64,000 nucleotides of DNA from an uncultured Bacteroidaceae bacterium. GTDB taxonomy: Bacteria > Bacteroidota > Bacteroidia > Bacteroidales > JAADGE01. This document shows positions 28,947 through 46,068 of the stretch, piece by piece. Below the pieces are notes generated by a model. It had not been told where the DNA came from. It did not search any database and saw only the letters and a list, made by a program, of their open reading frames with translations. A program made the translations under genes and the position numbers. How positions within the stretch are numbered: position 1 is the first letter of the stretch; each line of letters begins with the position of its first letter. Location: NCBI GenBank assembly GCA_964472505.1, contig CAYYQW010000001.1, positions 30,701 to 94,700 on the forward strand. Reading direction: 5' to 3'.

Positions 28947-29900
28947 ATGAAAGCATATTACGATTTTGCAAAAAAAATAACTTACGATATTGGTGCTGCT
29001 TTTTTCGGATCCAAAGAATTTCCTTACGATCCCCGAAGTGTAAAAGCCGATGCATATCCAATAAATTATGAATTTGCATTAGTCAATTCGGCTAAGTTTT
29101 ATCCGGATTTTGATAACGATGGAATTCCGGTTGCAAATTATCTTAACGCCGGTTTTCAATATAACCCAACCCGTATAGCTTCTTATGCATTAGCGCATTA
29201 TAGCAGGTATCAGTTTGATGATAAACCTGAAAGCAAGTCGGTTTTTTTGAATACAGCCAATTGGTTTTTAAATGAAAAAAATGCACGGTTTGAGTATAAA
29301 TATAATTATGACCAACTAAAAGCACCCTGGATTTCTTGTATGGCTCAGGGACAGGGTATAAGTGTTTTGGTGCGCGCATACAAACTCACGAACGATGAAA
29401 AATATTTAAAACAGGCAATTTTAGCTGCCCAGCCTTTTGGTATATCTGTAAAAAAAGGGGGGTTACGAAGCTTTCGCGAAGGATTAGGTTACTTTTTGGA
29501 GGAATTTCCGTTTCCCAACAGGCCTTGGACAGTCCTCAACGGGTTTTTGTATGCAATAATCGGCATCATTGAACTGCAAAACCATTATCCTGAAATTGAT
29601 AATGAAGTAGGTTTGCAGAAATTAATAACTTCGGCCGCTAAAGGGCATTTATGGACACATAAGGATTGGACATGCTACGATTTGCAGAATATTGGCACAA
29701 CCAAGCGCAACGCGGCAACAGTAAATTATCATCGCGTGCACATAGCACAGTATCAATATTTGGCAAATTTGTTTCCCAAACTGGGGTTTGACGTGTACGC
29801 TAATCTGTGGACAAAGCAATACAATTCGCTCATTAAACGGACAAATGCTTTAAAAAACAAAATAATTTTCAGAACAAAAAATCCGGCCAACAGATTTTAA
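28947..29900 (+). CDS. D-glucuronyl C5-epimerase family protein
   Basis: YNPTRIASYAL, APWISCMAQGQGISVLVRAY, FLEEFP, VLNGFLYAIIG, YDL...ATVNYHRVHI; no signal peptide seen. Confidence 0.85.
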   Translation: MKAYYDFAKKITYDIGAAFFGSKEFPYDPRSVKADAYPINYEFALVNSAKFYPDFDNDGIPVANYLNAGFQYNPTRIASYALAHYSRYQFDDKPESKSVFLNTANWFLNEKNARFEYKYNYDQLKAPWISCMAQGQGISVLVRAYKLTNDEKYLKQAILAAQPFGISVKKGGLRSFREGLGYFLEEFPFPNRPWTVLNGFLYAIIGIIELQNHYPEIDNEVGLQKLITSAAKGHLWTHKDWTCYDLQNIGTTKRNAATVNYHRVHIAQYQYLANLFPKLGFDVYANLWTKQYNSLIKRTNALKNKIIFRTKNPANRF

Positions 29901-30069
29901 TGATACGTTTTTTAGACCTGATATTTTCCTTGTTTGGTAGTATTCTATTATTGCCTCTGTTGCTAATTGTAGGCATAGCCATTCGCACAGAATCAACAGG
30001 TTCTGCCATTTTTCGTCAAAAAAGAATTGGCAAGGCAGGGGCGGAATTTAGTTTGTACAAATTCCGAAC
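29900..30069 (+). pseudogene. 5' fragment of a phosphoglycosyl (sugar) transferase
   Basis: MIRFLDLIFS...IFRQKRIGKAG..F.LYKFRT, then homology stops; catalytic DELPQL/GPRP region is absent. Confidence 0.8.
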
Positions 30070-30149
30070 TAAGCAGGTTAAAAAAGATGACAATAGACTC
30101 AGAACTCCAAAGTTAATTTTGTATATTCGGAATGTATTAAAACATAAAA

Positions 30150-30377
30150 ATGGAATTGACAATCAACATAAAAGAAGATGAAACCTCATTTTCGGACGAA
30201 CATAAAACTTTAAAAAGAATAGAAACCGGAGAAACAGCTTCCGAAATTGGAATAAGATTAAACAGAATTATGAAAAAACCCCAATATAAAATAAAGCTCT
30301 CGAACAAAACCAAGACCTGTTTTGATAACGCGTATGAATACTATCCCGAAAAAACAATAAACTTGCAGATAAGATGA
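30150..30377 (+). pseudogene. Small ORF, possibly a collapsed antitoxin plus RelE/ParE N-terminus
   Basis: MELTINIK... start; from the internal ATG at 30270, YKIKLSNKTKTCFDNAYEYY resembles a ParE beta1-alpha1. Confidence 0.35.
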
Positions 30378-31060
30378 AAAAATTAGTACTGATTGCGTTC
30401 ATTCTACTATTCCTGCTAAATGTGATAAAAGCACAAAGTAAACATGAACTCGGAATAAATTATGCCCCAAACTATTTTATAAGAACATCCGGCAGGCTTT
30501 TGCCTCAGAAACAAGATAAAATTGCAATAAGTCAAAAAATTGGATTTATTTATAAATATCGGCTTAACGATAAAACCAAAATTTTAACAGCTGTCAATTA
30601 TTCTGTCTTAAAGGAACATAATAATTACGATAATGCATACAGTTTACCTCCAAATGAATATGAATTTTTGTATTCCGGCAACTCTTCATTGTATATTAAC
30701 AGAGAAACTTTAAGTTCAAAATTCTACTTTTTCGAAATACCCGTCAATATCAATTACTATTTTTACAAGAACATATTTTTATCAACCGGATTTAGTAATT
30801 CTTTTTTTATTAAACATGAACTGTGGACTGATATTTCTAATAAATCAAAATCAATTTATAATTATAGACAATACCTTGTTGAATATTATTTAGGTTGTGG
30901 TTTTTCAAAAAAGCTAACAAATAATGTTAATCTTTCTATTAATCCGTATTTTCAAACTTCTATAAATGACTTTATGTCAACGAATCACATAAATACAGAA
31001 TATCAAAATTTCGTAAATCAATTTGGTTTAAACATAAATATGAGCTATAAATTTAACTGA
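30374..31060 (+). CDS. Outer-membrane beta-barrel protein (porin-like), AT-rich
   Basis: Signal peptide, alternating aromatic strands, FFEIPVNINYYF, terminal MSYKFN. Confidence 0.7.
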   Translation: MKKLVLIAFILLFLLNVIKAQSKHELGINYAPNYFIRTSGRLLPQKQDKIAISQKIGFIYKYRLNDKTKILTAVNYSVLKEHNNYDNAYSLPPNEYEFLYSGNSSLYINRETLSSKFYFFEIPVNINYYFYKNIFLSTGFSNSFFIKHELWTDISNKSKSIYNYRQYLVEYYLGCGFSKKLTNNVNLSINPYFQTSINDFMSTNHINTEYQNFVNQFGLNINMSYKFN

Positions 31061-31170
31061 AACCAGCCAAAATATATCGGCTCCCGCTACTCAAAAGCCT
31101 TCCGCCTGTCGGCAAATTTTGTAAACAGATATGAAATACCGGTGCTGAGTAAGAAATTGATATAGCAAAT

Positions 31171-31773
31171 CTATCTAAATGCAATTATCCGCCTCAAAGT
31201 CATAAAAATAATTTTCATGTCGTAAAGAACTGAAGGTTTACGTTTTGCATAGACTAAATTTTCCGTCAATTTATCAGGCATAATTTTTTCGATATAGGCC
31301 TTCTCCGGATCATCAAATTCCTCTAACAAACTACTTTCTTCAGCATACTTAATTGATGCTATATCAGTAATCCCCGGTTTTACTTTTAAAACATTGAGCT
31401 GCTCATTTGTATATAAATTCACGTATTTTCTCACTTCCGGGCGAGGCCCTACAATACTCATATCGCCCCGCAGAACATTAATAAGTTGCGGAAGTTCATC
31501 CAGCTTATATTTTCGCAGAATATATCCGGATTTCGTAATTCGGTTATCGCGCTCACCAACAGTCAATAAACCTTTTTTATCAGAATCCGGATACATTGTT
31601 CTGAATTTAAGCAATTTAAAATCTTTATTATTTTTTCCTACTCGGTTTTGACGATAAAAAACACCTCCTTTAGACTCAATTACAATCCAAAATGCAAGTA
31701 TTAAAAAAACCGGCAAAACAAGCAGTATTCCCAAAAAAGAAAACAATATATCAAAAGCGCGTTTAAATATCAT
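31171..31773 (-). CDS. Initiating phosphoglycosyl transferase, WcfS-like
   Basis: KRAFDI, KFRTM, KKGLLTVGERDNRIT, KLDELPQLINVLRGDMSIVGPRPEV. Confidence 0.9.
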   Translation of the reverse strand: MIFKRAFDILFSFLGILLVLPVFLILAFWIVIESKGGVFYRQNRVGKNNKDFKLLKFRTMYPDSDKKGLLTVGERDNRITKSGYILRKYKLDELPQLINVLRGDMSIVGPRPEVRKYVNLYTNEQLNVLKVKPGITDIASIKYAEESSLLEEFDDPEKAYIEKIMPDKLTENLVYAKRKPSVLYDMKIIFMTLRRIIAFR

Positions 31774-31785
31774 ATAAGAAAATCT

Positions 31786-33000
31786 TTACAGGTAAATATT
31801 GCAAGCTTTTAAAAGGACATCACAAACCTTGTTTAATTGATTATCTGACAAATCGAAAAATACGGGAAGTGAAATTTCAGAATTTGAATTGCTCAAGGCA
31901 ACAGGATAATCTTCTGCATTGTAGCCCATTGATTTGTAAAATGTAAAACCGGGCACCGGCAAAAAATGAACATTTACCGAAACTTTACGTTCAAAAACAG
32001 CTTGAATAATTTTATTTCTGGTTTCTTGATTGATGTTCTTTATACGAAGCGGGTAAAGGTGGAATGAACTTATTTTTGTCTCAGTTTTATAAACCGGGAT
32101 TTGAAAAATATCCGGAAATCGGGAAAAAAAGTTGGTGTATTTTTCAAAGATATAGTTACGCTTACTCAGTATTTCAGATTCATAGCGTTTAAGTTCCGCC
32201 AATCCGATTGAAGCTAATATATCTGTCATATTCGCTTTATACCCGGCTTCAAGTATATCGTATTGCCAATTTCCCACTTTCGTTTTAGCAAGTGCATCCT
32301 TACTTTGTCCATGCAATGAAAAGACATTCAAAAATTGATAAACTTCTTGATTATCAAATGGTTTAGGCAGATTAAGAGCCACTGCTCCTCCTTCGGCAGT
32401 GGTAAGGTTTTTTACGGCATGAAAAGAAAAGACGGCAATATCTGTTATATTCCCGGTCATTCTGCCCTTATATTTTGCTCCGATTGAATGGGCAGAGTCA
32501 GCCAAAATTAAAATACGTCCAAGCTTTTTTTGATTGTTTGTTTTGGGAACAAAAATGTCTTTTATTTTGGGCATTGTAACAAGCGTATTAATCTCATCGT
32601 AATCTACCGGCAATCCGGCAAAATCCACCGGCATAATAACCTTAGTTCGGGGCGAGATTTTTTTCCGAATTTCTGCAACATCTATATTAAAATCATGCTC
32701 GTTTACATCGGCAAATACCGGCTTAGCTCCACAATGTACTATAACATTGGCTGTTGCAGCGTAAGTATATGCCGGAATAATTACCTCATCACCCTCTCCT
32801 ACACCATACCATCTAAGAATGAGTTCAAGACCTGCCGTTGCTGAGTTTAAAGCAAGAATTTTGGGGCTTCCGCAAAACTCCTCCAATTTTTTTTCAAACA
32901 ATTTAGTTTTTGGACCGGTTGTAATCCAACCGGATTTTAGTGTATCGATTACTTCATCAATAGCTTCTTGACTTATTGCCGGGGGTGAAAAAGGTATCAT
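31786..33000 (-). CDS. DegT/DnrJ/EryC1/StrS aminotransferase, WcfR-like
   Basis: IPFSPP, SGWITTGP, DSAHS, SFHAVKNLTTAEGG, LNLPKPFDN, KLGRIL, KSMGY..DYP.A...SEISLP. Confidence 0.88.
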   Translation of the reverse strand: MIPFSPPAISQEAIDEVIDTLKSGWITTGPKTKLFEKKLEEFCGSPKILALNSATAGLELILRWYGVGEGDEVIIPAYTYAATANVIVHCGAKPVFADVNEHDFNIDVAEIRKKISPRTKVIMPVDFAGLPVDYDEINTLVTMPKIKDIFVPKTNNQKKLGRILILADSAHSIGAKYKGRMTGNITDIAVFSFHAVKNLTTAEGGAVALNLPKPFDNQEVYQFLNVFSLHGQSKDALAKTKVGNWQYDILEAGYKANMTDILASIGLAELKRYESEILSKRNYIFEKYTNFFSRFPDIFQIPVYKTETKISSFHLYPLRIKNINQETRNKIIQAVFERKVSVNVHFLPVPGFTFYKSMGYNAEDYPVALSNSNSEISLPVFFDLSDNQLNKVCDVLLKACNIYL

Positions 33001-33141
33001 TATCTGCTTGTGTTTAATTGTATATATCGTTCATTAAAAAGAGTCAATATTATAACTCCGGCTGCATATCCTATGCCATATAAGCAAAAATATAATAATC
33101 TGCAATTGATATTACTTCATTTTTAAAAGGAATAATTATGC

Positions 33142-33754
33142 TTAATATTCTCCTATACTTATTTCCATAATATAAAACACCGAATCCATCGATTGATAAT
33201 CAAACTCATACCCTGAATTATCATAAAATCTTATTGCAGCCTGATTAGATTTTTTTACCGATAGACCATAAATGTTTTCATCGTTTTTCGAAAGATATTT
33301 TTCAAATTCTCTAATCATTTCACTCCCAACACCTTTAGACTGGGTGTCACGATCAATAGCTATCGACAGCAGCCTCAAGGATGCCCGGGAAATCTGTCTT
33401 GATTTGAAAACCGCAATTAACTTTTGAACTGCCTTTTAAAAAAAATTGTGGATTCATAAACATTAATCTGAGCAAATAACCTGAGTTTTCCGAAATAAAT
33501 TCCCTCACAGCTTTATTTGTATTGTAACCCGCAATAATAAAGCCTGAGATTTTTCTTTGTGCATCAAGTGCAACAAAACAATACTCATTAGATAAAATTA
33601 ATATTTCATAAAAGCGTGCTAATTTTTCTTCCGAAAAACGTGATGTAAAATGATCAGGATGATAAGCCGATTTATATATTTTGCAAATATCTCCCAAATA
33701 CTTCACGTAGTTATTTTCAATCAATTATAACAGTTCTATACTTGACATATTCAT
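33142..33754 (-). pseudogene. GNAT N-acyltransferase, interrupted by an in-frame TAA and a 1-nt frameshift
   Basis: ATG at 33754/33748 in frame with TAA at 33727-25; frameshift at the T8A4 run (33434-33445); C-terminal RLLSIAID...KGVGSEM...N.AAIRFY...GY. Confidence 0.8.
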
Positions 33755-33887: not shown

Positions 33888-35153
33888 TTAACTCAACTGC
33901 CGGTTGCTCTTACCGGCTGTCCTTTCTATCAAATCAGCATATTCAGCATAAACAATTGCACTATCCAGACGTGCGCTAAAAACTTCTCGTACATTTTCAG
34001 AATACGCGTCTATAGCTTCCGGATGCTCATAAAAGAACCGGATTTCTTCAGCCAACTTTTCGATATCATCATAAATAAAGCTCTTCCCTAATTTATGCTT
34101 GTATATAAACTCATGAAATTCGCCTACTGTAGAAGACAAAACCGGTAATCCGCCGCTAAAATAACCGAAAGCCTTGTTAGGAAAAAACTCAAATTCTGAT
34201 TTTATGGGAATAACTCCGATATTTGAAAGTTGCAGAACGCGGGCAATATCCTTCTGTTCCAGCCAACCGGTAAAATGTATATTTGGTGCATTTCCTGCAA
34301 GTTGTCTTGAATAATCTTCATAGTTGCCTGTACCGGCCAACACAAAATGTATTTTAGTTCTTAAATCCGTATTCTCATTTATAAAGTGGGCTGCTTTAAT
34401 GAGCGGAGCCGGATTATGTATTTTTGTAAATGTACCCAGATACAAAACCACAAACTTATCTTTGGTTTGCTCTTCAATATTTGACAAAACGGGATTAGCT
34501 TCCTGTTTATCCGTCATTTTCAAGCTATTGCTGCCAATATAAAACACCGTATCGTCCGAAACAGCAGGACGTTTGACTTTATCCTGCGCCCATTTAAGCA
34601 TGGTTTGCATCATGCTTACAAGAACATCAGCATTTTTAAAAACAAAATTTGCTCGTCTGAAATCACGTATCAATACCATACGAGTTAATCTTTTCAAAAA
34701 TGTATTTTTGAAAGCATGAACAATAAAATCCGGCCAATAATCTCTGACATCCACAATTACCGGAATATTGTTTTTTTTACCAAAAAGCAAAGCATGATAA
34801 GCCAAATTATGCTCAGGCAAAGAATTCACTATAATATCCGGTTTTTCAGGCTCCTGTTCAGCTTTCTTTTTAAAATCAGCAGCTACAGTCAAATGGCAAA
34901 TAATACGACGTACAGAAATATTTCGTTTATAACTAATACTTTTCAAGTAACGAAGATTCAAGCCTGTATTAAGCTTTTCTTTTGCTTTGCCTTTATTGAT
35001 ATATGATTTTGACTGATGCTCGTATGCCGCAGTCCACCACGTTACATTGTGTCCGCGACTAAGAAGTTCTTTTGCTAAATAGCCCGTACGCATCATACGG
35101 TCGCCTTCATGGCGGGGAATAATTTCTCCTGTCTGTACAAGCCAAATATTCAT
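33888..35153 (-). CDS. GT4 glycosyltransferase
   Basis: VDVRDYWP, VLYLGT, FTGWL, PNKAFGYFSGGLPV. Confidence 0.88.
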   Translation of the reverse strand: MNIWLVQTGEIIPRHEGDRMMRTGYLAKELLSRGHNVTWWTAAYEHQSKSYINKGKAKEKLNTGLNLRYLKSISYKRNISVRRIICHLTVAADFKKKAEQEPEKPDIIVNSLPEHNLAYHALLFGKKNNIPVIVDVRDYWPDFIVHAFKNTFLKRLTRMVLIRDFRRANFVFKNADVLVSMMQTMLKWAQDKVKRPAVSDDTVFYIGSNSLKMTDKQEANPVLSNIEEQTKDKFVVLYLGTFTKIHNPAPLIKAAHFINENTDLRTKIHFVLAGTGNYEDYSRQLAGNAPNIHFTGWLEQKDIARVLQLSNIGVIPIKSEFEFFPNKAFGYFSGGLPVLSSTVGEFHEFIYKHKLGKSFIYDDIEKLAEEIRFFYEHPEAIDAYSENVREVFSARLDSAIVYAEYADLIERTAGKSNRQLS

Positions 35154-35179: not shown

Positions 35180-36280
35180 TCAATTAAAAAAATCGCAAAT
35201 TGCCTGTGCCGTATATTCAATCATTTCTTCAGTAAGTTCCGGGTACATGGGTAATGAAAGTATCTCATTTTGGAATTGAGCAGCATTAGGAACATCAGCT
35301 TTCGTATAGCCTAAATGCTCGTAGGCTTCCATAAGCGGCAAAGCCACCGGATAATGAACGGCCGTTGCAATGCCTTTTTCTTTCAGATACTTTTGCAATT
35401 CATCTCTGCGCTTTGTGCGTATGGCATAGATATGATAAATGTGCTTAACATCCGAGCGCACCGGCGGACAAATAATTTCATCGCAGGCTTTCAATTTTTC
35501 GTTATACAGCTCCGCATTTTTTGCTCGGCTGTTATTCCAGTCCAAGATATGCGGCAGTTTCTGTAATAAAACCGCAGCCTGTATGGTATCCATGCGGCTG
35601 TTGATGCCTTCTATTTTGTGAGCATGTTTTTTTAAAGCTCCGTGATTTACAAACATGCGAATTTTTTCGGCCAAAGTATCATCATTGGTTATTACGGCTC
35701 CGGCATCGCCGTAAGCTCCGAGATTTTTCCCCGGATAAAAACTAAAAGTAGCCGCATGCCCGAAAGTTCCGACATACTGTCCTTTATATTCTGCAAAATG
35801 CGCCTGGGCACAATCTTCGATCATATACAAATTATGCTTTTCACAAACGGCTTTAATTATTTCAATTTCAGCCGGTTGCCCGTACAGGTGAACCGGAATT
35901 ACGGCTTTGGTTCTGTCGGTAATTTTTTCTTCAATTTTTGAAGCATCCATATTGGAATACTCATCTATATCAACAAAAACGGGAACAGCACCGGTTTGGC
36001 CAATGGTTTCGGATGTGGAAATCCAAGAATTAGCCACGGTAATTACTTCATCGCCCGGTCCGATATTCATCATGCGTAATGCGGCATAAATGGCATCGGT
36101 GCCGTTGGCCAGTGCAATGCAATATTTTACGCCGTATTTTTCGGCATAGGCTTTTTCGAACTCTGCTACTTCCGGGCCTTTAATAAAAGCCGTACGATCA
36201 ATAACCGATTGAATAGCACTGTCTATTTCTTTTTTTAAAGAAAGGTATTGTGTGTGTAAATCTACAAAAGGGACTTTCAT
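35180..36280 (-). CDS. DegT-family aminotransferase, WbpE/WlbC-like
   Basis: VPFVDL, PVHLYGQ, EDCAQAH, SFYPGKNLGAYGDAG, NSRMD.IQAA; position in the wlbABC-like triad. Confidence 0.85.
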   Translation of the reverse strand: MKVPFVDLHTQYLSLKKEIDSAIQSVIDRTAFIKGPEVAEFEKAYAEKYGVKYCIALANGTDAIYAALRMMNIGPGDEVITVANSWISTSETIGQTGAVPVFVDIDEYSNMDASKIEEKITDRTKAVIPVHLYGQPAEIEIIKAVCEKHNLYMIEDCAQAHFAEYKGQYVGTFGHAATFSFYPGKNLGAYGDAGAVITNDDTLAEKIRMFVNHGALKKHAHKIEGINSRMDTIQAAVLLQKLPHILDWNNSRAKNAELYNEKLKACDEIICPPVRSDVKHIYHIYAIRTKRRDELQKYLKEKGIATAVHYPVALPLMEAYEHLGYTKADVPNAAQFQNEILSLPMYPELTEEMIEYTAQAICDFFN

Positions 36281-37894: not shown

Positions 37895-38971
37895 TTATAT
37901 ATCTCTTCCATAATCTTTTATAATTTCTCGGATAATCAGCTCTGATGAATTGCCCTGTCCATATAATTTTTTATCAAATATGATTTTATTCTTTTTAATA
38001 TCTTCATAGGCAAGCATAATTTTCTCTCTGTCGGCGCCAACTAAAATATTGTACTTACTGTCAACAAGCTCAGTCCATTCGGTTTCATCGCGCATTGTAA
38101 CACATGGCTTTTCAAAAAAGAAAGCTTCTTTTTGCATTCCTCCGCTGTCCGTAAATACAGCATCAGAATTTTTTAGTAAAAATAGTATTTGCAAATAACC
38201 AACCGGTTCGATAACTGTAATATTTCCGATTGGTATTTTCTTGTTTTCAATGATTTTTTTTGTGCGAGGATGTAGCGGAAGAATGACGCTTTTATCCTTT
38301 GCTATTCGATTAAGGGCGTCAAATATTTGTTCTAACCTGTCCTCACTATCTGTATTCTCTGCACGATGAACTGTGGCAAGAATATAGTTCTGCGGCATAT
38401 CAATATTCGGCTTTTTAGCCATCTGTCCGTAATACAAAGCAGAATCGAACATTACATCACCCACATTCAAATATTTAGTTTTAAAAGTTGCAAAACCCTC
38501 CTTACGCAAGTTCTCGACTGCGGTATCCGTCGGACAAAATAAAATATCACTTATCCTGTCAGTTAATATTCGGTTTATTTCTTCCGGCATATTCATATTG
38601 TACGACCTTAAACCGGCTTCTATATGCAGCAATTTTATATTCATTTTTTTTGCAGCTAAAGCTCCGGCTAAAGTAGAATTTGTATCACCATAAACAATAA
38701 CATAATCCGGTTTTTCATCCATCAATATTTTTTCAGTTTTCTCAAGTATCTTGCCTGTCATAGCCCCGTGAGAAAGATTATTGACATTCAAATTGTATTT
38801 GGGCTTAGGAATTTTCATTTCATCAAAGAAAACTTCACTCATATTCTGATCAAAGTGCTGCCCTGTATGAATGATGGTCTCAGAAATATTTTCATACTTA
38901 ATAAGTTCTCTGCTTATTGCTGCAGCTTTAACAAACTGCGGTCTGGCTCCTATTATTGTGATTATTTTCAT
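37895..38971 (-). CDS. wecB: UDP-GlcNAc 2-epimerase, non-hydrolysing (WecB/WbpI-like)
   Basis: GARPQFVK, HTGQHFD, YGDTNST, HIEAGLRS, MPEEINR, TDSGGMQKEA, RDETEW. Confidence 0.92.
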   Translation of the reverse strand: MKIITIIGARPQFVKAAAISRELIKYENISETIIHTGQHFDQNMSEVFFDEMKIPKPKYNLNVNNLSHGAMTGKILEKTEKILMDEKPDYVIVYGDTNSTLAGALAAKKMNIKLLHIEAGLRSYNMNMPEEINRILTDRISDILFCPTDTAVENLRKEGFATFKTKYLNVGDVMFDSALYYGQMAKKPNIDMPQNYILATVHRAENTDSEDRLEQIFDALNRIAKDKSVILPLHPRTKKIIENKKIPIGNITVIEPVGYLQILFLLKNSDAVFTDSGGMQKEAFFFEKPCVTMRDETEWTELVDSKYNILVGADREKIMLAYEDIKKNKIIFDKKLYGQGNSSELIIREIIKDYGRDI

Positions 38972-40119
38972 TCTAAAACTTTTTTATAAACATTTAAAAA
39001 CCGAGTTTCTTCATTTTCCCAATTATACTTTTGCTGTACTGCCTCCTTTCCGTTTCGCCCCATTTCATAGCATAATTCAGGATCTCCTGCTAAATTGTTT
39101 ATTACTTTTCCAATTTCCGAGGCAGAAGACGGATCAACACAAATACCGCATTTGTTGTTCTCAATGATTTGTTTCCACAAAGGAAAATTGGAAGCAATTA
39201 CAGGTATTCCGGCAGCCATATACTCGAATAGCTTGTTAGGCTGCGCATTAATGTGGTTTGGTTCAGGCATAAAAGTAACACAACCGGCAATTGATTTATT
39301 TAACTCAATATTCATTTGCTCTCGATTCATATAGCCAAGATACTTAACCTTTTCCCACCCTGCAAGTTTTTTACATTTTTCATACAAAGCATCATCTTCA
39401 AAATTGCCGCCTAAAACCAGCTGAACATTAGTATTATCTAGCGATTCGATCAAGGACAGTATCCCGCGTATGCGTGATATAGCACCAACATAAATAATTT
39501 GCTTCTCTTTTTCGGCCGATGATGATTTATCCGAAACAAATTCACTTCGAAACGGATAATTATTTATGCTCTCAGCTGCCGAATTTATTTTTAAAAAACG
39601 TTGTTTGATAAAATCCGTTGCAGTTACAATAAAATCCAATTTTTTAACTTTATTATCCTCGTAATATTCAGTAAGAAAAGCCAGTAATGATCTTAAATAT
39701 TTTGGGATATAATGCTTACTCTTTAGCTGTCTGGGAAGATCTTCGTGGGCATCATAAATTACTTTTTTCCCTTTCTTTTTAAGTTTAACAGCAATGCGCA
39801 ATAATTCCGGATCGTGAATATGGTACACCTCGGCATCCAGAGATAAAGCCTTTTTATATACTTTATTTACGGAATATATCATGCGCTTTATTCTGTTTTT
39901 TTCACGTCCGACATCCAAAATAGTAATATTATCAGCTACTTCATCTCCAAGCGAATCCGCTACGATAAGGTAAACATCAAACCCGGCTGCAAGTAAGCTT
40001 TTACACTCCTTTTGAAAAATTCGGGTGTCATAGCGATTATGAACGGATGTAAGATGTACTGCTTTCATGGTTTCTAAATTATTTGACAGAATGATATTAA
40101 GAATACGATTGGTTCGCAT
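38968..40119 (-). CDS. GT4 glycosyltransferase
   Basis: HLTSVH...DTRIF.KE, HIHDPEL, YDAHED, PNKLFEYMAAGIPVIASNF. Confidence 0.9.
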   Translation of the reverse strand: MRTNRILNIILSNNLETMKAVHLTSVHNRYDTRIFQKECKSLLAAGFDVYLIVADSLGDEVADNITILDVGREKNRIKRMIYSVNKVYKKALSLDAEVYHIHDPELLRIAVKLKKKGKKVIYDAHEDLPRQLKSKHYIPKYLRSLLAFLTEYYEDNKVKKLDFIVTATDFIKQRFLKINSAAESINNYPFRSEFVSDKSSSAEKEKQIIYVGAISRIRGILSLIESLDNTNVQLVLGGNFEDDALYEKCKKLAGWEKVKYLGYMNREQMNIELNKSIAGCVTFMPEPNHINAQPNKLFEYMAAGIPVIASNFPLWKQIIENNKCGICVDPSSASEIGKVINNLAGDPELCYEMGRNGKEAVQQKYNWENEETRFLNVYKKVLE

Positions 40120-41401
40120 TGTATGTATTTTGTAAAAATATATATGAAAATATTATTAACAAAAATACCCCGTGTGTTAAAAGACTGGTAAATAAGGCGC
40201 TACTGAGAAAAGTAAACATCGTTATTATAAATACCCCGTTGTACTCAGGACTGATTTTAAAAGAATCAATAAGCTTTATTATTCCTGCCACAATAACTGA
40301 AAAGAACACCGGCCCTATATGCCCCAGGTGCATAAAGCCGTCGGAGATAAAGCCGTTGTTGGCACTCACCTGGGGTTTCCCCCAATATATCGAAGCAATA
40401 AGGTTCGAAGGTTGTAAAGAATAGGAATAGTCCACATAATCACTTAAAAAACTATTACCGAAAAACACCGGCTTGCCGGCAAAAAAGTCAAAATATGACT
40501 CATTTAAAATTGCAGGAATGAAGAATACACGCCGCACAAAAGTACCTTCAATATTCAGGTATTCGTAATACTCAGTTGTAAAACGGCTTGCAATAATTAC
40601 AAAAATAATACCGCTGAAAATTGTCGCAACCTGTGCTCCCGGTTTTTTAATTATATAGAGCATTACAGCCACTATGGGGGCAAATAAAATAACTTTATGC
40701 GACATGGTCACAAATAAATACAACAAAAAAAACAGGGCGCCCCAATAAGCAATTTTTCTGTTTTTTTTAAACCCAAACAACAGCAGGGCGGGTAATATTA
40801 TCTTCACTAACCAGCTCATGGTATAACGGATATAGCTTCCGGCTAAATCTTTAGCTTCAGCTCGCTGTATATAAACATTCCGGTCAAGAGAAAAAACAGA
40901 AAAATTTACATCCCAACGATATGTCATGAAATACGGAATAAGCATAAGCAAACTTATACCGAAAAGCAATAAAGCTTGGTTTTTGGCTGTTATTTTCAAG
41001 CTATAAGCCTGTCTTAATCGTATTTGACCGACAATAATCAAGAGTAAAATAAAAAAGCTGATATGCAGAATAATGCTAAAGTTAAAGTCCATAAACTGAT
41101 ACAAAATCAAATTCGGAATCAGCATCATCACGATAAAAAACATGGCCGTAAAATAGGTAAAGGGAGTTTTTATTCGGTTAGCCAAAAAGGAAAGAAATAG
41201 GAATATCAATTTCGCAAGAATATACTTCCTCAAATCAAAGTCATAAAAAAATATATGATAGACATCGCTGACAAATACTTTATAGGAGTATTCCAGCAGA
41301 AAGTAAATTGTCAGTATCAATACAAAATTGATGATACGGAAATTGAATCTTTCCAAGAATTTATTTAGCTTTTGAATCATATTTGTAAAAACAAGTGGCA
41401 A
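40097..41401 (-). CDS. Wzy-like O-antigen/capsule polymerase
   Basis: Polytopic membrane protein with about 11 TM and large loops, located between the flippase and a GT. Confidence 0.6.
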   Translation of the reverse strand: MPLVFTNMIQKLNKFLERFNFRIINFVLILTIYFLLEYSYKVFVSDVYHIFFYDFDLRKYILAKLIFLFLSFLANRIKTPFTYFTAMFFIVMMLIPNLILYQFMDFNFSIILHISFFILLLIIVGQIRLRQAYSLKITAKNQALLLFGISLLMLIPYFMTYRWDVNFSVFSLDRNVYIQRAEAKDLAGSYIRYTMSWLVKIILPALLLFGFKKNRKIAYWGALFFLLYLFVTMSHKVILFAPIVAVMLYIIKKPGAQVATIFSGIIFVIIASRFTTEYYEYLNIEGTFVRRVFFIPAILNESYFDFFAGKPVFFGNSFLSDYVDYSYSLQPSNLIASIYWGKPQVSANNGFISDGFMHLGHIGPVFFSVIVAGIIKLIDSFKISPEYNGVFIITMFTFLSSALFTSLLTHGVFLLIIFSYIFLQNTYNANQSYS

Positions 41402-41499: not shown

Positions 41500-42870
41500 T
41501 TACAGCTCAAGAAAACGAAGAAATCCAAATCGGATTAAAAAAAGAATAATTGTAGCAAACGCTAAACGTAAAAGCGTGTATCTAAGCACATACCACACAT
41601 CTACTTTCACTATATTGAGCAAATACACAGCTACCCCGCCCCACATCAAAGCACCCGCCACTCCGAAAAGCAAAACAGCAGTTTGTTCGTCTTCGAACCA
41701 AAGGCCGCCAACAAGAAGAGCCGATAGGCGTAATCCAAAAAGCAGTCCGTAAAAAACCATTGACTCGGCTTGCCGCTCAAGAACACTGAAAAGCATGGCC
41801 AAAGGCGATGCTATGAAAACAAATAATATTGCCGGGCTCAGAAATTGCGTAAAACGTCCGGCAGTCTGCCATTCAGCTCCGAAAACAAAGGGGAAAATAT
41901 AATCGGCAAAAGCCATTAGTATCATCATGGGAACAAAACCTATGAGAAACATCTTTTTATACAGTTCAAGCGTAATATGCCTGAGTTTTTCGGGATTATC
42001 TTTTTGCGCGGCGGCATTACGAAAAAAGACCTGTCCCACGGCGTGTCCCAAAACCATAGCCGGTACGCTGAGAACGCGCATCGACAAGGAATAATAGCCC
42101 ACAATGGCTTCGGCAAAGAAAACGGAAAGCATAAATACGGGAATCTGCAACGAAAGAATATTAAGAAAAGCCGAACCGGTTGAAAACATGGGAAAACGCT
42201 TGTAACGAACTGCGTTCAAGCACATTCTCGAAAAAGAAAAACGTTTTATAAAATGAAAATCCTGCCGGAAAACTTTTGTAATGAAAATTGACACCATAAG
42301 TAACCACCCGAGCAAATACCCGAACACCAGACCTCCGGCTCCTTTAGCAAAAGCTATCCAAGACAAATTAATGCCTCCGACTGTAATGCCGCGCGCCACA
42401 TTAGCACGAGCAATTCCGCCGTACTGTTTTTTTCGGTTAAACCAATAATTTAATGCTTTGTAAGAGCCAACAATAGTAATTCCGGGCGGTACGGCATAAA
42501 TCCAGTATTTGAGCCGTTCGCTGCCTAAAATTTTCACAACCCAATCTCCAAAAAAGTAAGCCGCAACAAAAAATAAAGTGCCCACCGAAACTGCTGTCAG
42601 CAAAGATAAAACCAAAACATGAAAGGCATCTTTCCTATGTTTCGGGAGCATTACTGCCAAATCATATTGGCCGGTTGCCAAAACGGCAAAAACATTTACA
42701 AGCGATGTATAAAGGGCATACAAGCCAAAATCTTCCGGACTGTAGAAACGCGACAAAATGGGCGATATAAGCACCGGTATGGCTTGCGCAATAACGGTTC
42801 CGGTCATTAGCTTTGACACGTTTTTTACAAATTCGGATTTGACGTACTTTTGAATCAGCTTCTGTATCAT
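41500..42870 (-). CDS. Wzx oligosaccharide flippase
   Basis: GTVIAQAI...PILSRFYSPEDFG, VG.YSL..RVL..P...LG.AVGQVF, AEWQTAG. Confidence 0.88.
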   Translation of the reverse strand: MIQKLIQKYVKSEFVKNVSKLMTGTVIAQAIPVLISPILSRFYSPEDFGLYALYTSLVNVFAVLATGQYDLAVMLPKHRKDAFHVLVLSLLTAVSVGTLFFVAAYFFGDWVVKILGSERLKYWIYAVPPGITIVGSYKALNYWFNRKKQYGGIARANVARGITVGGINLSWIAFAKGAGGLVFGYLLGWLLMVSIFITKVFRQDFHFIKRFSFSRMCLNAVRYKRFPMFSTGSAFLNILSLQIPVFMLSVFFAEAIVGYYSLSMRVLSVPAMVLGHAVGQVFFRNAAAQKDNPEKLRHITLELYKKMFLIGFVPMMILMAFADYIFPFVFGAEWQTAGRFTQFLSPAILFVFIASPLAMLFSVLERQAESMVFYGLLFGLRLSALLVGGLWFEDEQTAVLLFGVAGALMWGGVAVYLLNIVKVDVWYVLRYTLLRLAFATIILFLIRFGFLRFLEL

Positions 42871-42970
42871 ACAATAGTTAGGACAGGATAAATTTCATCA
42901 AAATTATAATAAAATTGATAAAAATATGAAACTTTTTAAAAATTCTACTGCAATATTGTGTTCTGTTTGC

Positions 42971-44326
42971 CTAATCCCGGCAAGAACAAACAATATCAAT
43001 TATTTTTTCATAGTATAATGCATATTCATCCCACAAGGGAGAATTGATATTATTGTTATGCCACAACAATACAAAATTTCCGCCGTACTTTTGAATTTTT
43101 TTGTAAAGTCGCTTTATTTCCGGGAGTGCGCTTTTGGGATTTGGGTATTGTTCTCGCAGCGCTACATCCATAACTATTAAAGGGCGTTCACGCAAAGCTA
43201 ATTGGCGGCGCTCTATAATGTCAAAAAGCGGAAACTCTCGAGCTGTTCCCGCTCTGAAACCAAGTCTGTGCCTAAACCCCAAAGTACTGTCTGTCTGTAA
43301 AGCTTTTTTATCCCAAATACGCCATGTAACCGGATTGTGAAAACGCAAGAAATGTTGTCTTCCCTCACTGACCGGCTTTCGAGTGTAAGCATTAATACGT
43401 GCCAACTCCAAAGCAAATTGTTTTTCATTTTTATGAGAACTGTAAGAGCCGTGTATCCCTATAATGTGATCTTGCGCTTCAAGTTCCTTAATAAGCGTTT
43501 TAGTTTTCGAGCTGCTTATTGAATATTTTACATCTTTTTCGCCCGGCTCGCCGGCTATAAAGTAAAAATGTGATTTCATACCGTACTTTTCCGAAACATC
43601 GGCCAGATAATCGTAGGTATCATAAGGGTCTGCGGCTTTTCCGCCAAGCAAAGCCGTGTATTCCCCCACAGTTTTAAAAAGCTGATTAAAACTACGGCGT
43701 TTCAAAAGATCGCCCCCGGCCTTCTTTATAAAACTAAAAAAACCGGAATATTTATATAAAAAATCAACATCATGCGTAATAACAGCTTGGTAAGTGTTTT
43801 CATTAATATTTTCAATTCCGGCGGATTGTAATAGTTTTTTTAAAAACATAAAATATTCATCGGCCACCGGGCGATTACTAATGCTGTTTTTTACTGCAAA
43901 CAGCATGTTTTCCGGAGTTCGTCCGTGAATATCTTTCTCCTCGATCACATACTCTTCCCAGCGGCTCAGCATAAAAAAAGCAGAAGCAAAAATATCGAGG
44001 CCACATTCAATTATATTGTTACGCTCTGAAAAATAATTATTTCCGAAGATTATGGGCAATCGGTTCTCGAAAGTATAAGGATTGGGATCCAAAAACTTTA
44101 GTGTTTGAGGCAAAGCATTTTTCTGCAAATACGATTGTTCGCTTTTAATATTACCAAAGAAGGCATCGTGAAAAATTATTTTTCTCCCGCTTTCAAAATG
44201 TATCTCATAATTATCAACGGCTGCTTGCTGAAAAGTATAGTCAAGCCCTGCAAATTCGGAAAAAAGAATATCAGCGGCATATTTCTTTTCTTCATAAAAT
44301 CCGACGGGCACAAGCAGTTTAATCAT
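42971..44326 (-). CDS. Polysaccharide deacetylase family protein with N-terminal extension
   Basis: FFMLSRWEE, ITHDVD, IGIHGSY, GRQHFLRF, DSTLGF, PLIVMD, LLWHN. Confidence 0.8.
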   Translation of the reverse strand: MIKLLVPVGFYEEKKYAADILFSEFAGLDYTFQQAAVDNYEIHFESGRKIIFHDAFFGNIKSEQSYLQKNALPQTLKFLDPNPYTFENRLPIIFGNNYFSERNNIIECGLDIFASAFFMLSRWEEYVIEEKDIHGRTPENMLFAVKNSISNRPVADEYFMFLKKLLQSAGIENINENTYQAVITHDVDFLYKYSGFFSFIKKAGGDLLKRRSFNQLFKTVGEYTALLGGKAADPYDTYDYLADVSEKYGMKSHFYFIAGEPGEKDVKYSISSSKTKTLIKELEAQDHIIGIHGSYSSHKNEKQFALELARINAYTRKPVSEGRQHFLRFHNPVTWRIWDKKALQTDSTLGFRHRLGFRAGTAREFPLFDIIERRQLALRERPLIVMDVALREQYPNPKSALPEIKRLYKKIQKYGGNFVLLWHNNNINSPLWDEYALYYEKIIDIVCSCRD

Positions 44327-45258
44327 TAAATCTGTTTATTAGACTTAGAGGCTTCCACAAAACGTTTGTATTCCATAATATTATCAAAACGTTCTATGGT
44401 TTTATGAGCCGCTTTAAGCGAAGGCGGCGATACAAATATACCATTATAAATAACGATGCCTTTGTTTTCTTCGGCTGCCTCTTTGGACAGTCGAACAATT
44501 TCTCTTGCTTTTTCCACTTTATCTTCGTCGGGCGTATAGCCGGCATTGGCAATGGGTAACTCGCGCGGAGACATGATCAACATGCCTTCAAAACCCATAA
44601 CATTGGCTTGTCGAATATGCTTTTTCAATCCTTCAAAATCGCCTACCTTAACATACGGCGTATCAATGGCCAACAAATCGTGCGCTTTGGCTGTCATGGA
44701 AACAATGTGACGCGGCACGGCAATTCCCTGCGCATCTTCACCGTGTTGGCCTTCTTGCTCTGCCAGAAAGTCTTCGCTTCCGAAAAGCAATCCGATGATA
44801 CGATCCGAAGCCGTGGCTATTTCATTTAAGCGCACAATACTTTCGGGTGTTTCAATTAAAGCTATTATGTCAAAATAACCTTGGGGCAGGCCCAAAAGTT
44901 TTTCTTTAAGCGAAAGCTGCGCATCAAAAGCAATCATATCACGTGCAGTGCGAGCCATAGGATATACAAATCCGTTGAGATTGGGGCTTACTACTGCATC
45001 CGTATCTAATAAAGTCATACCGCTTTCCAAAGGGTTGATTCTTACATAGACCGGACGGTCATCGGGAAGTTCATGAGAAAGAAAATCTCTGAGTGTTTCG
45101 CGGGCTTCCTCTTTTTTATCATCCGGAACGGCATCTTCCAAATCAAAGACAATCGCATCAGCCTCGGTTTGAAATGATTTATTAATATATTTTTTATTAT
45201 GTCCTGCCGTAAAGAGGAGTGAACGGTGAACAAGTTTTCCGGTAAATTTTGTTTTCAT
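44326..45258 (-). CDS. CitE-like acyl-CoA lyase (HpcH/HpaI aldolase/citrate lyase family)
   Basis: RSLLF, DLEDAV, VRIN, LIETP, GSEDF, AIDTPY; TAATG overlap with the deacetylase. Confidence 0.88.
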   Translation of the reverse strand: MKTKFTGKLVHRSLLFTAGHNKKYINKSFQTEADAIVFDLEDAVPDDKKEEARETLRDFLSHELPDDRPVYVRINPLESGMTLLDTDAVVSPNLNGFVYPMARTARDMIAFDAQLSLKEKLLGLPQGYFDIIALIETPESIVRLNEIATASDRIIGLLFGSEDFLAEQEGQHGEDAQGIAVPRHIVSMTAKAHDLLAIDTPYVKVGDFEGLKKHIRQANVMGFEGMLIMSPRELPIANAGYTPDEDKVEKAREIVRLSKEAAEENKGIVIYNGIFVSPPSLKAAHKTIERFDNIMEYKRFVEASKSNKQI

Positions 45259-45415
45259 CTGCTTATTTTTAATTTTTTGAATTAGCCATTTTATTAATAT
45301 TCACATTATCTTGATTCACAGGCTTTACAAAAGCTATAATTTGCAAAAAATGTTTCTTCGATTAAGAATGCCGGCTACAAAATATGATTTTTTCTCGCAT
45401 TTATATTCTATCAAT

Positions 45416-45462
45416 CCCCCTGCCCTTCCGAAATAATCGGAACAGGCACTTCTCCAAGGGGG
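45416..45462. repeat. Nested GC-rich palindrome (REP-like)
   Basis: CCCCCT/AGGGGG outer stem, GCC/GGC, inner TTCCGA-AATAA-TCGGAA. Confidence 0.6.
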
Positions 45463-45572
45463 AATGCGTAAAATGCCGGTGTGCTGTAATTTTAAAATTT
45501 GTCGTACTCATACGCCTAATTCAATTAATTTTTTTCAAATATAAAAACTTATTCCAAAATCATGGCCTAACG

Positions 45573-45592
45573 AATCAGGCCAAAATAATATT
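45573..45592 (-). terminator. Possible maoC terminator
   Basis: TGGCCT/AGGCCA stem 17 nt past the stop. Confidence 0.4.
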
Positions 45593-45609
45593 TCTATGAA
45601 CTTGATGAA

Positions 45610-46068
45610 TCATTTTAAAGGCACAAGCACTTTCCGAGAAAAGGACAATATCTTTTCATTGTTTTGGTTAAAAGCTGTGGTTTTCACCTGCACAATGCCT
45701 CGGTCAGGTTTGGATTTGGACTGCCTTTTGTCCAGTACTTCAGTTTCGGCTGTTAGAGTATCTCCGATGAATACGGGCCCAAGATGTTTAACATCATCAT
45801 AACCCAAATTTGCCACGGCTTTTCCGCTGACATCAGCCACTGAAATTCCTACTGTCACTGAAAAAACCAAAGTACCCACTACCAATATTTTTCCGTGCTG
45901 TGCATCTTGTGCGTACTTATGATTCAAATGCACCGGATGATGATTCATGGTCAGTAAGGAAAATAAATTGTTGTCTGATTCCGTTATAGTTTTGCTTAAG
46001 CTGTGACGGTAAATATCACCGATTTCAAATTCCTGAAAATATCGGCCGAATGGAAATGCTAAGTTCAT
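45610..46068 (-). CDS. MaoC-family dehydratase/hydratase
   Basis: GRYFQEFEIG, TITESDN, TMNHHPVHLN, NLGYDDV..LGPVFIGDTL; ATG at 46068 preferred. Confidence 0.9.
   Translation of the reverse strand: MNLAFPFGRYFQEFEIGDIYRHSLSKTITESDNNLFSLLTMNHHPVHLNHKYAQDAQHGKILVVGTLVFSVTVGISVADVSGKAVANLGYDDVKHLGPVFIGDTLTAETEVLDKRQSKSKPDRGIVQVKTTAFNQNNEKILSFSRKVLVPLK

Follow-up and report, generated by a model that had tools for sequence, protein, structure and literature searches.

A probable O-antigen gene cluster with AATGal-type and diamino-uronate genes in an uncultured Bacteroidia bacterium of microbial mats

The 64 kb stretch of DNA that we analysed (the window) belongs to an uncultured Bacteroidia bacterium of microbial mats, and carries a single Wzx/Wzy-type polysaccharide cluster on its minus strand, at 31171-46068 (Table 1). 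A gene and profile check of the window found every gene of the original prediction in its place; gene content and family assignments are direct observations. Wza/Wzc or UpxY-type genes are absent from the window, so the locus resembles an O-antigen locus more than a Bacteroides-style capsule locus, and an LpxB gene adjoins the cluster. The region is most likely one Wzx/Wzy-dependent heteropolysaccharide cluster, for an O-antigen.

Table 1. Features of the polysaccharide cluster and its flank, in window coordinates
Feature	Coordinates	Strand	Evidence or remark
D-glucuronyl C5-epimerase-like protein	28947..29900	+	C5-epim_C 135 bits
Second PGT remnant, 93 aa	29900..30181	+	N-terminal 67 residues only, Bac_transf positions 2-64 of 179
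Small monotopic phosphoglycosyl transferase (PGT; initiating enzyme)	31171..31773	-	Bac_transf 194 bits, full length
Sugar 4-aminotransferase, AATGal type (WcfR/Spr1654-like)	31786..33000	-	DegT 309 bits
GNAT N-acetyltransferase pseudogene	33142..33724	-	1-nt frameshift in T8A4 run near 33440
GT4 glycosyltransferase, travels with Wbp genes	33888..35153	-	Pfam Glycos_transf_1, Glyco_transf_4
Sugar 3-aminotransferase, WlbC/WbpE-like	35180..36280	-	DegT 393 bits
Left-handed beta-helix (LbH) N-acetyltransferase, WlbB/WbpD role	36293..36751	-	Hexapep
UDP-GlcNAc(A) 3-dehydrogenase, WlbA/WbpB-like	36758..37822	-	GFO_IDH_MocA
UDP-GlcNAc3NAcA 2-epimerase, WbpI/WlbD type	37895..38971	-	8SXV 365 bits, best match
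Second GT4 glycosyltransferase	38968..40119	-	34% identity only, in sister locus
Wzy-like polymerase candidate	40097..41401	-	Membrane topology, position
Wzx flippase	41500..42870	-	Polysacc_synt_3 84 bits
DUF7033 / CE4-fold N-deacetylase, VimE-like	42971..44326	-	DUF7033
CitE-like CoA-ester lyase	44326..45258	-	HpcH_HpaI 119 bits
MITE-like 256-bp repeat between MaoC and CitE genes	45268..45525	.	Depth, empty site
MaoC-type (R)-enoyl-CoA / mesaconyl-CoA-type hydratase	45610..46068	-	MaoC_dehydratas, MC_hydratase

The history of the locus is mosaic. The second PGT is a remnant 42% identical to the intact one, and the rest of it was not found in any frame; the C5-epimerase-like gene, a possible member of the polysaccharide system, runs convergently to the main operon and has no counterpart in any related locus. 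Both lie within the span of the original prediction, which left them undescribed, as it did the MaoC and CitE genes, which are in the same operon as the polysaccharide genes. The CitE-like lyase gene, which ends in a stop codon overlapping the start codon of the deacetylase gene, is syntenic with the latter in related loci, and in nearly all of them MaoC immediately precedes CitE; family scores fall below cut-off for both proteins (citE 155 and RipC 126 bits for the lyase, RipB/Ich 150 bits for the hydratase). A cassette of MaoC, CitE, AAC(3)-like and DUF7033 genes is widespread, and we found no paper on it; the version in the window is without the acyltransferase. The MITE-like repeat has a depth 10-30x that of its flanks, folds with z = -2.9 and is absent from related strains, in which 45268 is joined to 45525, while a related copy is present in the sister strain locus.

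Two neighbouring genes form a putative initiation module. The 404-aa aminotransferase matches Spr1654 (6EWJ) with 377 bits and 47% identity, against 83 bits for PglE, 146 for PseC, 122 for WecE and about 200 for ArnB, and it keeps all modelled UDP-AATGal pocket residues (D168, H194, V196, K197, Q232, Y247, K255, H345 and F346; pocket as in PMC5936713). Score and pocket bear out its original assignment as AATGal-type rather than PglE-type, and the predicted reaction, judged from sequence, is conversion of UDP-4-keto-6-deoxy-GlcNAc to UDP-FucNAc4N. The small PGT has one N-terminal hydrophobic segment and its best PDB match is PglC (100 bits); its predicted role is to charge undecaprenyl phosphate with the 1-phosphate of the 4-amino sugar. 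It directly follows the aminotransferase in 5/5 related loci examined (PGT identity 56-66%), which supports the pairing originally proposed, and relatives carry a Wzy_C ligase-family gene beside the pair. The strings cited as signatures, LNLPKPFDN, KLGRIL and KKGLLTVGERDNRIT, are indeed present in the locus proteins; among the 120 closest homologues, xNLPxPFDN and KLGRIL are conserved, but Spr1654 has neither.

A second set of genes points to a diacetamido-uronate. The 3-dehydrogenase matches 3Q2K and 3Q2I, which we take to be WlbA of B. pertussis and C. violaceum, at 310-312 bits, with the next PDB match at 105. The best PDB match of the 3-aminotransferase is not WbpE (271 bits) but 7B0D (374 bits), with QdtB at 325, and the LbH acetyltransferase, 94% identical in the sister locus, is weakly WlbB-like (7S43 57 bits, WlbB 3MQG 46 bits). 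Ala, Tyr and Trp at three positions set UDP-GlcNAc3NAcA epimerases apart from UDP-GlcNAc epimerases (PMC10622841); K15, A16, Y94 and W299 of the 2-epimerase correspond to the specificity residues Lys17, Ala18, Tyr96 and Trp307 described there. Together, the WlbA-like enzyme and these epimerase residues point to ManNAc3NAcA, in agreement with the diacetamido-uronate branch of the original prediction. Neither a WbpA-type UDP-GlcNAc 6-dehydrogenase nor a 4,6-dehydratase of the PglF/UngD2 type is encoded in the 64 kb window or the 8 kb upstream, so both sugar branches rely on unseen genes. The A-LPS genes of P. gingivalis are scattered over its chromosome. [quoted passage not shown]

The first GT4 holds the same position in the sister locus (77% identical) and in another related locus (57% identical). 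The Wzy-like protein, without a Pfam match, has about 10 hydrophobic (membrane) segments and one hydrophilic loop of roughly 80 residues (277-355), and is 83% identical in the sister locus, where its position is kept. Two GT4s and a PGT fit a trisaccharide, as in the original estimate of about three sugars per repeat. The deacetylase was also correctly recognised, since its predicted structure (pLDDT 94.7) has a CE4 fold, with Foldseek matches to the CE4 deacetylases 3RXZ, 3QBU and ArnD 8T0J (probability 1.0); H185, D186, D188, H287 and H292 are invariant.

We infer the substrates of all these enzymes, the sugar order and the charge state as follows. In one branch, proposed from homology, a UDP-GlcNAc 4,6-dehydratase encoded elsewhere would supply UDP-4-keto-6-deoxy-GlcNAc, which the WcfR/Spr1654-type aminotransferase would convert to UDP-FucNAc4N (AATGal), and the small PGT would transfer AATGal-1-P to undecaprenyl phosphate as the first sugar. 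In the other branch, an unlinked WbpA-type 6-dehydrogenase would supply UDP-GlcNAcA. The WlbA-like enzyme would oxidise its C3, the WlbC/WbpE-like one would introduce an amino group there, the LbH transferase would N-acetylate the product and the WbpI-type 2-epimerase would turn it into UDP-ManNAc3NAcA; some of this product probably loses its 2-N-acetyl group to the VimE-like CE4 deacetylase. The two GT4s would complete the trisaccharide, one version of which, modelled on P. aeruginosa O5, has two diamino-uronates attached to AATGal, and the unit would be flipped by Wzx and polymerised by the Wzy-like protein. A free 4-amine, and perhaps a 2-amine, beside the uronate carboxylates may make the polymer zwitterionic. 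A glycan with AATGal and a 2,3-diamino-uronate is well supported as a prediction, and a zwitterionic polymer is plausible; we consider the scheme as a whole, an O-antigen-type polymer of AATGal and diamino-uronate that is possibly zwitterionic, somewhat probable.

The GNAT gene bears on the charge. Its halves lie in different frames, and reading through with a one-base shift yields 194 aa, whose Acetyltransf_1 match (42 bits) spans the break. The gene was originally described as broken and is: an identical frameshift occurs in 4/4 assemblies of the strain, from three sequencing runs, some of which share one sample, and a JGI sample, as read from contigs, where minority run lengths would not show. 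No specific relative of this GNAT was found, and it is absent from related loci. With the only nearby GNAT frameshifted and no other capping enzyme in the locus, the amines may stay free. Alternatively, the same backbone could be made with its amines acylated by an outside enzyme, by the LbH transferase or by a GNAT restored through slippage, which would leave a polymer with negative charges only, as in the acetylated 60% of the O-antigen of F. nucleatum ATCC 51191. Indeed, that known O-antigen of the same composition has partly N-acetylated FucNAc4N (PMC8048906), the frameshift lies in a homopolymer run whose length could vary, and the MaoC-CitE pair elsewhere accompanies an N-acyltransferase. 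Nonetheless, the broken frame is the same in every assembly, the 64 kb window is without an AAC(3)-like or FemAB-like transferase, and no acetyltransferase adjoins this aminotransferase-PGT pair in the relatives that share it; we regard acylated amines as possible, if doubtful.

It is unlikely that the aminotransferase makes a gluco 4-amine of the bacillosamine type, or another 4-amino sugar, such that there is no AATGal. Sequence cannot fix stereochemistry with certainty, the best NCBIfam model for the enzyme is PseC, below threshold, and Spr1654 is itself assigned to UDP-AATGal with a product not demonstrated in vitro (PMC5936713); moreover, FucNAc4N-type PGTs accept UDP-Bac to some extent (PMC11257628). 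However, the bit score against Spr1654, the AATGal-assigned enzyme, is over fourfold that against PglE, the aminotransferase has the family-specific insertions of Spr1654 as well as its pocket, and the locus is without a PglD-type acetyltransferase.

We think it quite unlikely that the cluster instead makes a T9SS cargo anchor glycan through an A-LPS-like Wbp/Vim-type pathway, with the de-N-acetylated diamino-uronate, or its aminoacylated form, as the sugar to which the PorU sortase links cargo. In the window, the Wbp/Vim-type genes are clustered with Wzx/Wzy. The A-LPS genes of P. gingivalis comprise WbpA/B/D/E, VimA/E, PorR and a WbaP, and the gene classes are mirrored here by WbpB/D/E-like proteins, a Wzx (cf. 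PorS), GT4s, a Bac_transf PGT and a VimE-like protein, the VimE-family CE4 deacetylase acting on a di-N-acetyl uronate (PMC7468200). Several T9SS cargo proteins are encoded in the window, and a more distant relative retains, at this chromosomal site, only the Wzx-deacetylase pair. Against this reading, no VimA/FemAB-like gene lies in the window, VimE, the only named family that the deacetylase matches, scores 148 bits against an NCBIfam cut-off of 440, DUF7033 proteins are found in many different polysaccharide loci, and linking sugars vary among T9SS species, such that homology predicts little (PMC11969387). Lastly, the GNAT pseudogene, the PGT remnant, the MITE insertion in the operon, the loss of the cassette acyltransferase and the absence of precursor genes from the window could be signs of a decaying locus whose polymer is absent or incomplete, but this is very improbable, since 13/13 core genes are intact, the 77-96% identity of nine of them to sister-strain counterparts points to purifying selection, and the strain is abundant (~50x word depth in the X1 assembly), with an identical locus assembled from the other sequencing runs.

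The polymer of AATGal and diamino-uronate that we favour has close counterparts. The O-antigen of F. nucleatum ATCC 51191, ->4)-b-D-GlcNAcA-(1->4)-b-D-GlcNAc3NAlaA-(1->3)-a-D-FucNAc4NR-(1->, where R is Ac (60%) or H (PMC8048906), is likewise a trisaccharide with FucNAc4N, its 4-amine partly free, a 2,3-diamino-uronate and a second uronate, and has a FucNAc4N-specific PGT (PMC11257628). It comes from another phylum, and its diamino-uronate is gluco and 3-N-alanylated, whereas in the window locus the WbpI-type epimerase predicts manno and the CE4 deacetylase a change at N-2. In the wlb locus of B. pertussis, source of the closest solved relative of the WlbA-like enzyme, WlbA-D-type ManNAc3NAcA genes also share a locus with genes for a 4-amino-fucosamine derivative; by contrast, the band-A trisaccharide, GlcNAc-Man2NAc3NAcA-Fuc2NAc4NMe (PMC10743493), is a single non-repeating unit on the core with a methylated 4-amine, and the Wzx and Wzy-like protein of the window imply a polymer. 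The P. aeruginosa O5 B-band locus (wbpA-M) shares WbpB/E/D/I functions, two GT4s (WbpH/J-like) and Wzx/Wzy (see also PMC10622841), but in the window an AATGal aminotransferase and small PGT replace FucNAc/WbpL initiation, WbpA/WbpM are absent from the locus and a VimE-like deacetylase is added; the sister locus ends in WbpK/WbpL-like genes, a WbpL-type initiation module where the window has the AATGal module. Finally, the B. fragilis PSA wcfR-wcfS and pneumococcal Spr1654 modules also pair a 4-aminotransferase with an initiating small PGT and have a free amine in the product (predicted for the window), with the dehydratase encoded off-operon, the PSA operon having none of its own (PMC13063421); unlike PSA, the window locus is without a pyruvyl transferase, Galf mutase or UpxY/UpxZ.

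Thus, the AATGal-type aminotransferase, PGT, diacetamido-uronate genes, broken GNAT and CE4 deacetylase of the original interpretation stand, but its claim of novelty does not: the chemistry is known in F. nucleatum and B. pertussis, Tenacibaculum maritimum and the Bacteroidota MAG GCA_020719245.1 have the same combination of genes, and WcfR-based genomic screens for AATGal loci already exist (PMC10167101). The surface-polysaccharide cluster is real but fairly ordinary, and the MaoC-CitE-AAC(3)-like-DUF7033 cassette is of more interest.

All of the genes named in the original prediction are present, as judged from the ORF listing and from Pfam and NCBIfam scans; the Pfam scans covered ORFs of at least 150 aa, minus four overlapping ORFs that we judged to be spurious. 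The organism is uncultured and comes from microbial-mat metagenomes, and the locus was assembled, at 99.97-100% identity, from a JGI sample (3300012009) and from runs ERR2407577, ERR2407578 and ERR1878617, at least some of these runs deriving from one sample. A second, incomplete PGT (small phosphoglycosyl transferase) lies convergent with the operon and is 42% identical to the intact PGT over 67 residues, with no further PGT sequence following it in any frame; a 75-aa ORF after the remnant was rejected as its missing C-terminus, having neither a Pfam hit nor a tblastn match. This remnant and the adjoining C5-epimerase-like gene are probably a relic of another polysaccharide locus, and the putative C5-epimerase-like enzyme could act on uronates in the polymer. 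An Rfam search of window positions 27900-47000 gave no match.

Features of the polysaccharide locus and of the genes convergent with it, the operon being listed in its 5' to 3' order
Feature	Position	Strand	Remarks
MaoC-type hydratase	45610-46068	-	first in operon
256-bp repeat	45268-45525		between MaoC and CitE-like genes
CitE-like CoA-ester lyase	44326-45258	-	
DUF7033 protein	42971-44326	-	start codon overlaps CitE-like stop
Wzx	41500-42870	-	
Wzy-like membrane protein	40097-41401	-	no Pfam match; about ten hydrophobic segments, one long loop
GT4 glycosyltransferase (first)	38968-40119	-	
UDP-sugar 2-epimerase	37895-38971	-	
GFO/IDH/MocA oxidoreductase	36758-37822	-	
Hexapeptide (LbH) acetyltransferase	36293-36751	-	
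DegT aminotransferase (second DegT)	35180-36280	-	
GT4 glycosyltransferase (second)	33888-35153	-	
GNAT	33142-33724	-	frameshifted
DegT aminotransferase, 404 aa	31786-33000	-	
Bac_transf PGT, 200 aa	31171-31773	-	last in operon
C5-epimerase-like gene (D-glucuronyl)	28947-29900	+	convergent with operon
Second-PGT remnant, N-terminal, 93 aa	29900-30181	+	convergent with operon
Outer-membrane beta-barrel gene	30374-31060	+	convergent with operon

The terminal aminotransferase had been predicted to be of the AATGal (FucNAc4N) type rather than of the PglE type, which would direct bacillosamine synthesis. It is a PLP-dependent DegT-fold protein (DegT, 309 bits) whose K197 and D168 align with the catalytic Lys199 and Asp170 of pneumococcal Spr1654, and it belongs to a family that is very large in Bacteroidota (8000 matches listed, the best 120 of these being 62-72% identical). 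Among solved structures, Spr1654 itself (6EWJ) is by far the best match at 377 bits, followed by ArnB-type enzymes at about 200 (185-204), PseC at 146, WecE at 122 and PglE at 83 bits. The two proteins are 47% identical over 393 residues; the modelled UDP-AATGal pocket of Spr1654 is fully kept (Asp170, His196, Val198, Lys199, Gln234, Tyr249, Lys257 and His344-Tyr/Phe345), as are the insertions that lengthen the Spr1654 subfamily beyond other sugar aminotransferases. The comparison with PglE therefore favours the AATGal reading, with Spr1654, not the WcfR/WcfS sequences, as the comparison enzyme on which the assignment rests; a scan of genome contigs gave four loci, none of them from Bacteroides or from the window organism. 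Spr1654 is essential, and the role assigned to it is to make UDP-AATGal for teichoic acid, an assignment made without in vitro demonstration of the product (PMC5936713).

The PGT resembles PglC-type monotopic enzymes in having a single hydrophobic segment at its N-terminus, and it directly follows the aminotransferase in all five related loci retrieved, the same arrangement as in wcfR-wcfS of Bacteroides fragilis. In a network of monotopic PGTs, small PGTs specific for FucNAc4N cluster by themselves (PMC11257628). A UDP-GlcNAc 4,6-dehydratase of the PglF/UngD2/WbgZ type was not detected in the 64 kb window, by Pfam or by tblastn with Tenacibaculum maritimum enzymes as queries for the missing precursor enzymes, nor in the 8 kb that precede the window; the B. 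fragilis PSA operon likewise lacks this enzyme, UngD2 being encoded elsewhere (PMC13063421).

On the uronate branch, the second DegT protein is identified as a sugar 3-aminotransferase: it matches WbpE along its whole length at 271 bits and QdtB at 325 bits, and the matches that are closer than WbpE are other sugar 3-aminotransferases. A literature search gave no identity for the best match, 7B0D. The oxidoreductase matches 3Q2K and 3Q2I, which we take to be the WlbA structures from Bordetella pertussis and C. violaceum, at 310-312 bits, with the next match at 105, and so has the character of a WlbA/WbpB 3-dehydrogenase. The LbH acetyltransferase is only weakly WlbB-like (46 bits; best match 57 bits), and a WbpD/WlbB role is supported mainly by its place in the operon, where the WlbA-like and WlbC-like genes flank it. 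The most informative enzyme of this branch is the 2-epimerase, whose best match is the UDP-GlcNAc3NAcA 2-epimerase of Thermus thermophilus (8SXV, 365 bits). Three positions set 8SXV apart from UDP-GlcNAc epimerases: Ala18 stands where those enzymes have Met/Leu, Tyr96 where they have His/Gln, and Trp307 where they have the 3-OH-binding Arg; Lys17 touches the C6 carboxylate (PMC10622841). In the alignment to 8SXV, the window enzyme has K15, A16, Y94 and W299 at exactly those columns, indirect but specific evidence that its predicted substrate has an acetamido group at position 3 and is carboxylated at C6. The weak point of the uronate branch is the absence of a WbpA-type UDP-GlcNAc 6-dehydrogenase from the 64 kb window and the 8 kb upstream; in the window we detected neither a UDPG_MGDP_dh protein nor a tblastn match to the enzyme from the T. 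maritimum locus.

The predicted amine was proposed to stay uncapped because the one GNAT in the locus is broken. Indeed, the GNAT is a genuine pseudogene, the Acetyltransf_1 match of the read-through spanning the frameshift, which lies in a T8A4 run near 33440, and it lacks a counterpart in related loci. We considered a WecD- or PseH-like 4-N-acetyltransferase and found no specific relative; that the GNAT formerly capped the 4-amine is only a guess. For the DUF7033 protein, the sole named family to match is NCBIfam VimE, a family of UDP-GlcNAc3NAcA deacetylases, at 148 bits against a cut-off of 440. An AlphaFold model built with 34 homologues (pLDDT 94.7) has a C-terminal domain that Foldseek matches to the CE4 deacetylases 3RXZ, HP0310 (3QBU) and ArnD with a probability of 1.0, and the invariant residues H185, D186, D188, H287 and H292 are likely to be metal-binding and catalytic. 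VimE of Porphyromonas gingivalis has been proposed to strip the 2-N-acetyl group of the Wbp product, to which VimA then adds serine (PMC7468200). The window has no Acetyltransf_6 match that would mark a VimA/FemAB-like gene, and tblastn with the VimA-like protein of Carboxylicivirga was negative.

The proposed pathway has largely held in tests that were able to fail, namely the comparison with PglE and the specificity residues of the epimerase. The zwitterionic charge state is a step further: we infer it from gene content and the broken GNAT, and it needs two precursor genes from beyond the region seen.

A sister strain (L005) has its locus at the same chromosomal site, adjoining SurE, LpxB, RNase G and HU. 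Of the ten genes that it shares with the window, running from MaoC to the second GT4, nine have 77-96% identity to their window counterparts, the exception being the first GT4 at 34%, and the 2-epimerase, GNAT, 4-aminotransferase and small PGT are all missing. In their stead, genes for an NAD-dependent epimerase and for a WecA/WbpL-type transferase close the sister locus (L005 19677-21347, against 31171-33724 and 37895-38971 in the window), which argues that the AATGal module is an exchangeable initiation cassette, swapped as a unit. The low G+C content of the module (31-34%, versus 39-41% for the Wbp genes) agrees with such an exchange. In a more distant relative (L007 7946-10761), the same site between the HU and ABC-2 genes holds a DUF7033 deacetylase and Wzx only, two genes from which the locus may originally have grown as its ancestral core.

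Several sequences around and within the locus deserve mention in their own right. The 256-bp repeat is an MITE-like insertion with short terminal inverted repeats (TTGAATTAG); its depth in the metagenome is 10-30 times that of its flanks, it is missing from related strains, and it has no Rfam match. A diverged copy, 64% identical, separates the WbpD-like gene from the WbpE-like gene in the sister strain (L005 16976-17214). Genes for an AAA_14/DUF4143 ATPase and for a PIF1-type helicase that has HRDC/HTH_40 domains (23830-27926) border the end of the locus that is low in G+C (28-32 kb, 31-33%). Positions 10507-17049 hold, in a row, genes for a GT2-DUF2062 protein, a 1280-aa MMPL-acyltransferase-methyltransferase fusion and an amine-oxidase/desaturase-like protein, which may form a module for export and modification of a lipid or pigment (aryl-polyene/flexirubin-like). 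At 53469-63966 and 6582-8075 lie large genes for cargo of type IX secretion, which encode a C25 (gingipain-family) peptidase with Por_Secre_tail as well as trypsin-like/MAM, beta-helix/Ig and CHU_C proteins, and the organism therefore has a type IX secretion system (T9SS).

The suggestion that an amine combined with a diamino-uronate is new does not survive comparison with known glycans. The O-antigen of Fusobacterium nucleatum ATCC 51191 is GlcNAcA-GlcNAc3NAlaA-FucNAc4NR, where R is acetyl in 60% of the repeats and H in the rest (PMC8048906), and the wlb locus of B. pertussis makes the band-A trisaccharide GlcNAc-Man2NAc3NAcA-Fuc2NAc4NMe (PMC10743493). The combination also recurs at the level of genes. 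One metagenome-assembled genome (GCA_020719245.1) has DUF7033, WlbA-like, Wzx and GT4 genes, the aminotransferase (70%) and the PGT (66%), followed by a Wzy_C-family gene, and T. maritimum has two UDP-sugar dehydrogenases, a Wbp triad, Wzx, DUF7033, GT4s, a small PGT and a DegT protein in one locus; judged by these predicted gene sets, the combination is not unusual for Bacteroidota. Hundreds of putative AATGal-ZPS operons were already known from WcfR-based genomic screens (PMC10167101). The description that fits the window locus best is that of a new member, from the environment, of the AATGal-glycan loci.

The polymer could be a PSA-like capsule or an O-antigen. Capsule loci of the Bacteroides type have an architecture of UpxY/UpxZ and export genes, whereas the window lacks these, with HU upstream instead and LpxB nearby; no protein of the UpxY/UpxZ-type (NusG-like), Wza or Wzc families was found among window ORFs of at least 150 aa, minus four overlapping ORFs judged to be spurious. 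We favour an O-antigen over a Bacteroides-type capsule, because of the absence of Wza/Wzc and UpxY/Z, the neighbouring LpxB, and the ligase-family genes beside the aminotransferase-PGT pair in relatives.

In Bacteroidota polysaccharide loci, MaoC and CitE-like genes form a conserved pair and accompany DUF7033 deacetylases (window 42971-46068; related loci L008, L009, L010 and L019-L061). Three loci fetched through CitE-like homologues have MaoC, CitE, an AAC(3)-like Antibiotic_NAT gene (PF02522), DUF7033 and a Wzx of varying position, with an additional FemAB/VimA-like gene in Carboxylicivirga caseinilyticus, whose AAC(3)-like gene is at L010 10902-11798. A metagenome scan yielded 53 further loci, with MaoC before CitE almost everywhere and the NAT after CitE in about 19; DUF7033 lies within a few kb in every NAT-bearing locus with enough downstream sequence. 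The window and the sister strain have no AAC(3)-like NAT. We found no published description of the cassette or of DUF7033 in the literature. One reading, to which we give a small chance of being correct, is that the left end of the window locus is a reduced form of this cassette. The full form would comprise MaoC, CitE-like, DUF7033/VimE-like and Wzx proteins with the AAC(3)-like N-acyltransferase, in some cases joined by a FemAB/VimA-like protein. It would replace the acetyl group on N-2 of a (di)amino sugar by an unusual acyl group, which the cassette would itself generate from a CoA ester of the malyl, citramalyl or mesaconyl type. The window strain would have lost the transferase, such that the deacetylated sugar would keep a free amine; this would add another positive charge, the second, and might accept T9SS cargo for attachment.

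As one more predicted AATGal-glycan locus, the window locus extends such loci to a free-living, mat-dwelling lineage of Bacteroidia; surveys that look for zwitterionic glycans in bacteria without a host can make use of this, but it is not surprising. The swap between AATGal/small PGT and epimerase/WbpL-type genes seen against the sister strain, with the Wzy-like and Wbp genes staying in place, offers a natural experiment on O-antigen modularity. The MaoC-CitE-AAC(3)-like-CE4 deacetylase cassette would matter more than the locus itself: it could explain where bacterial amino sugars obtain some of their unusual N-acyl groups, and it offers a function for DUF7033 that can be tested.
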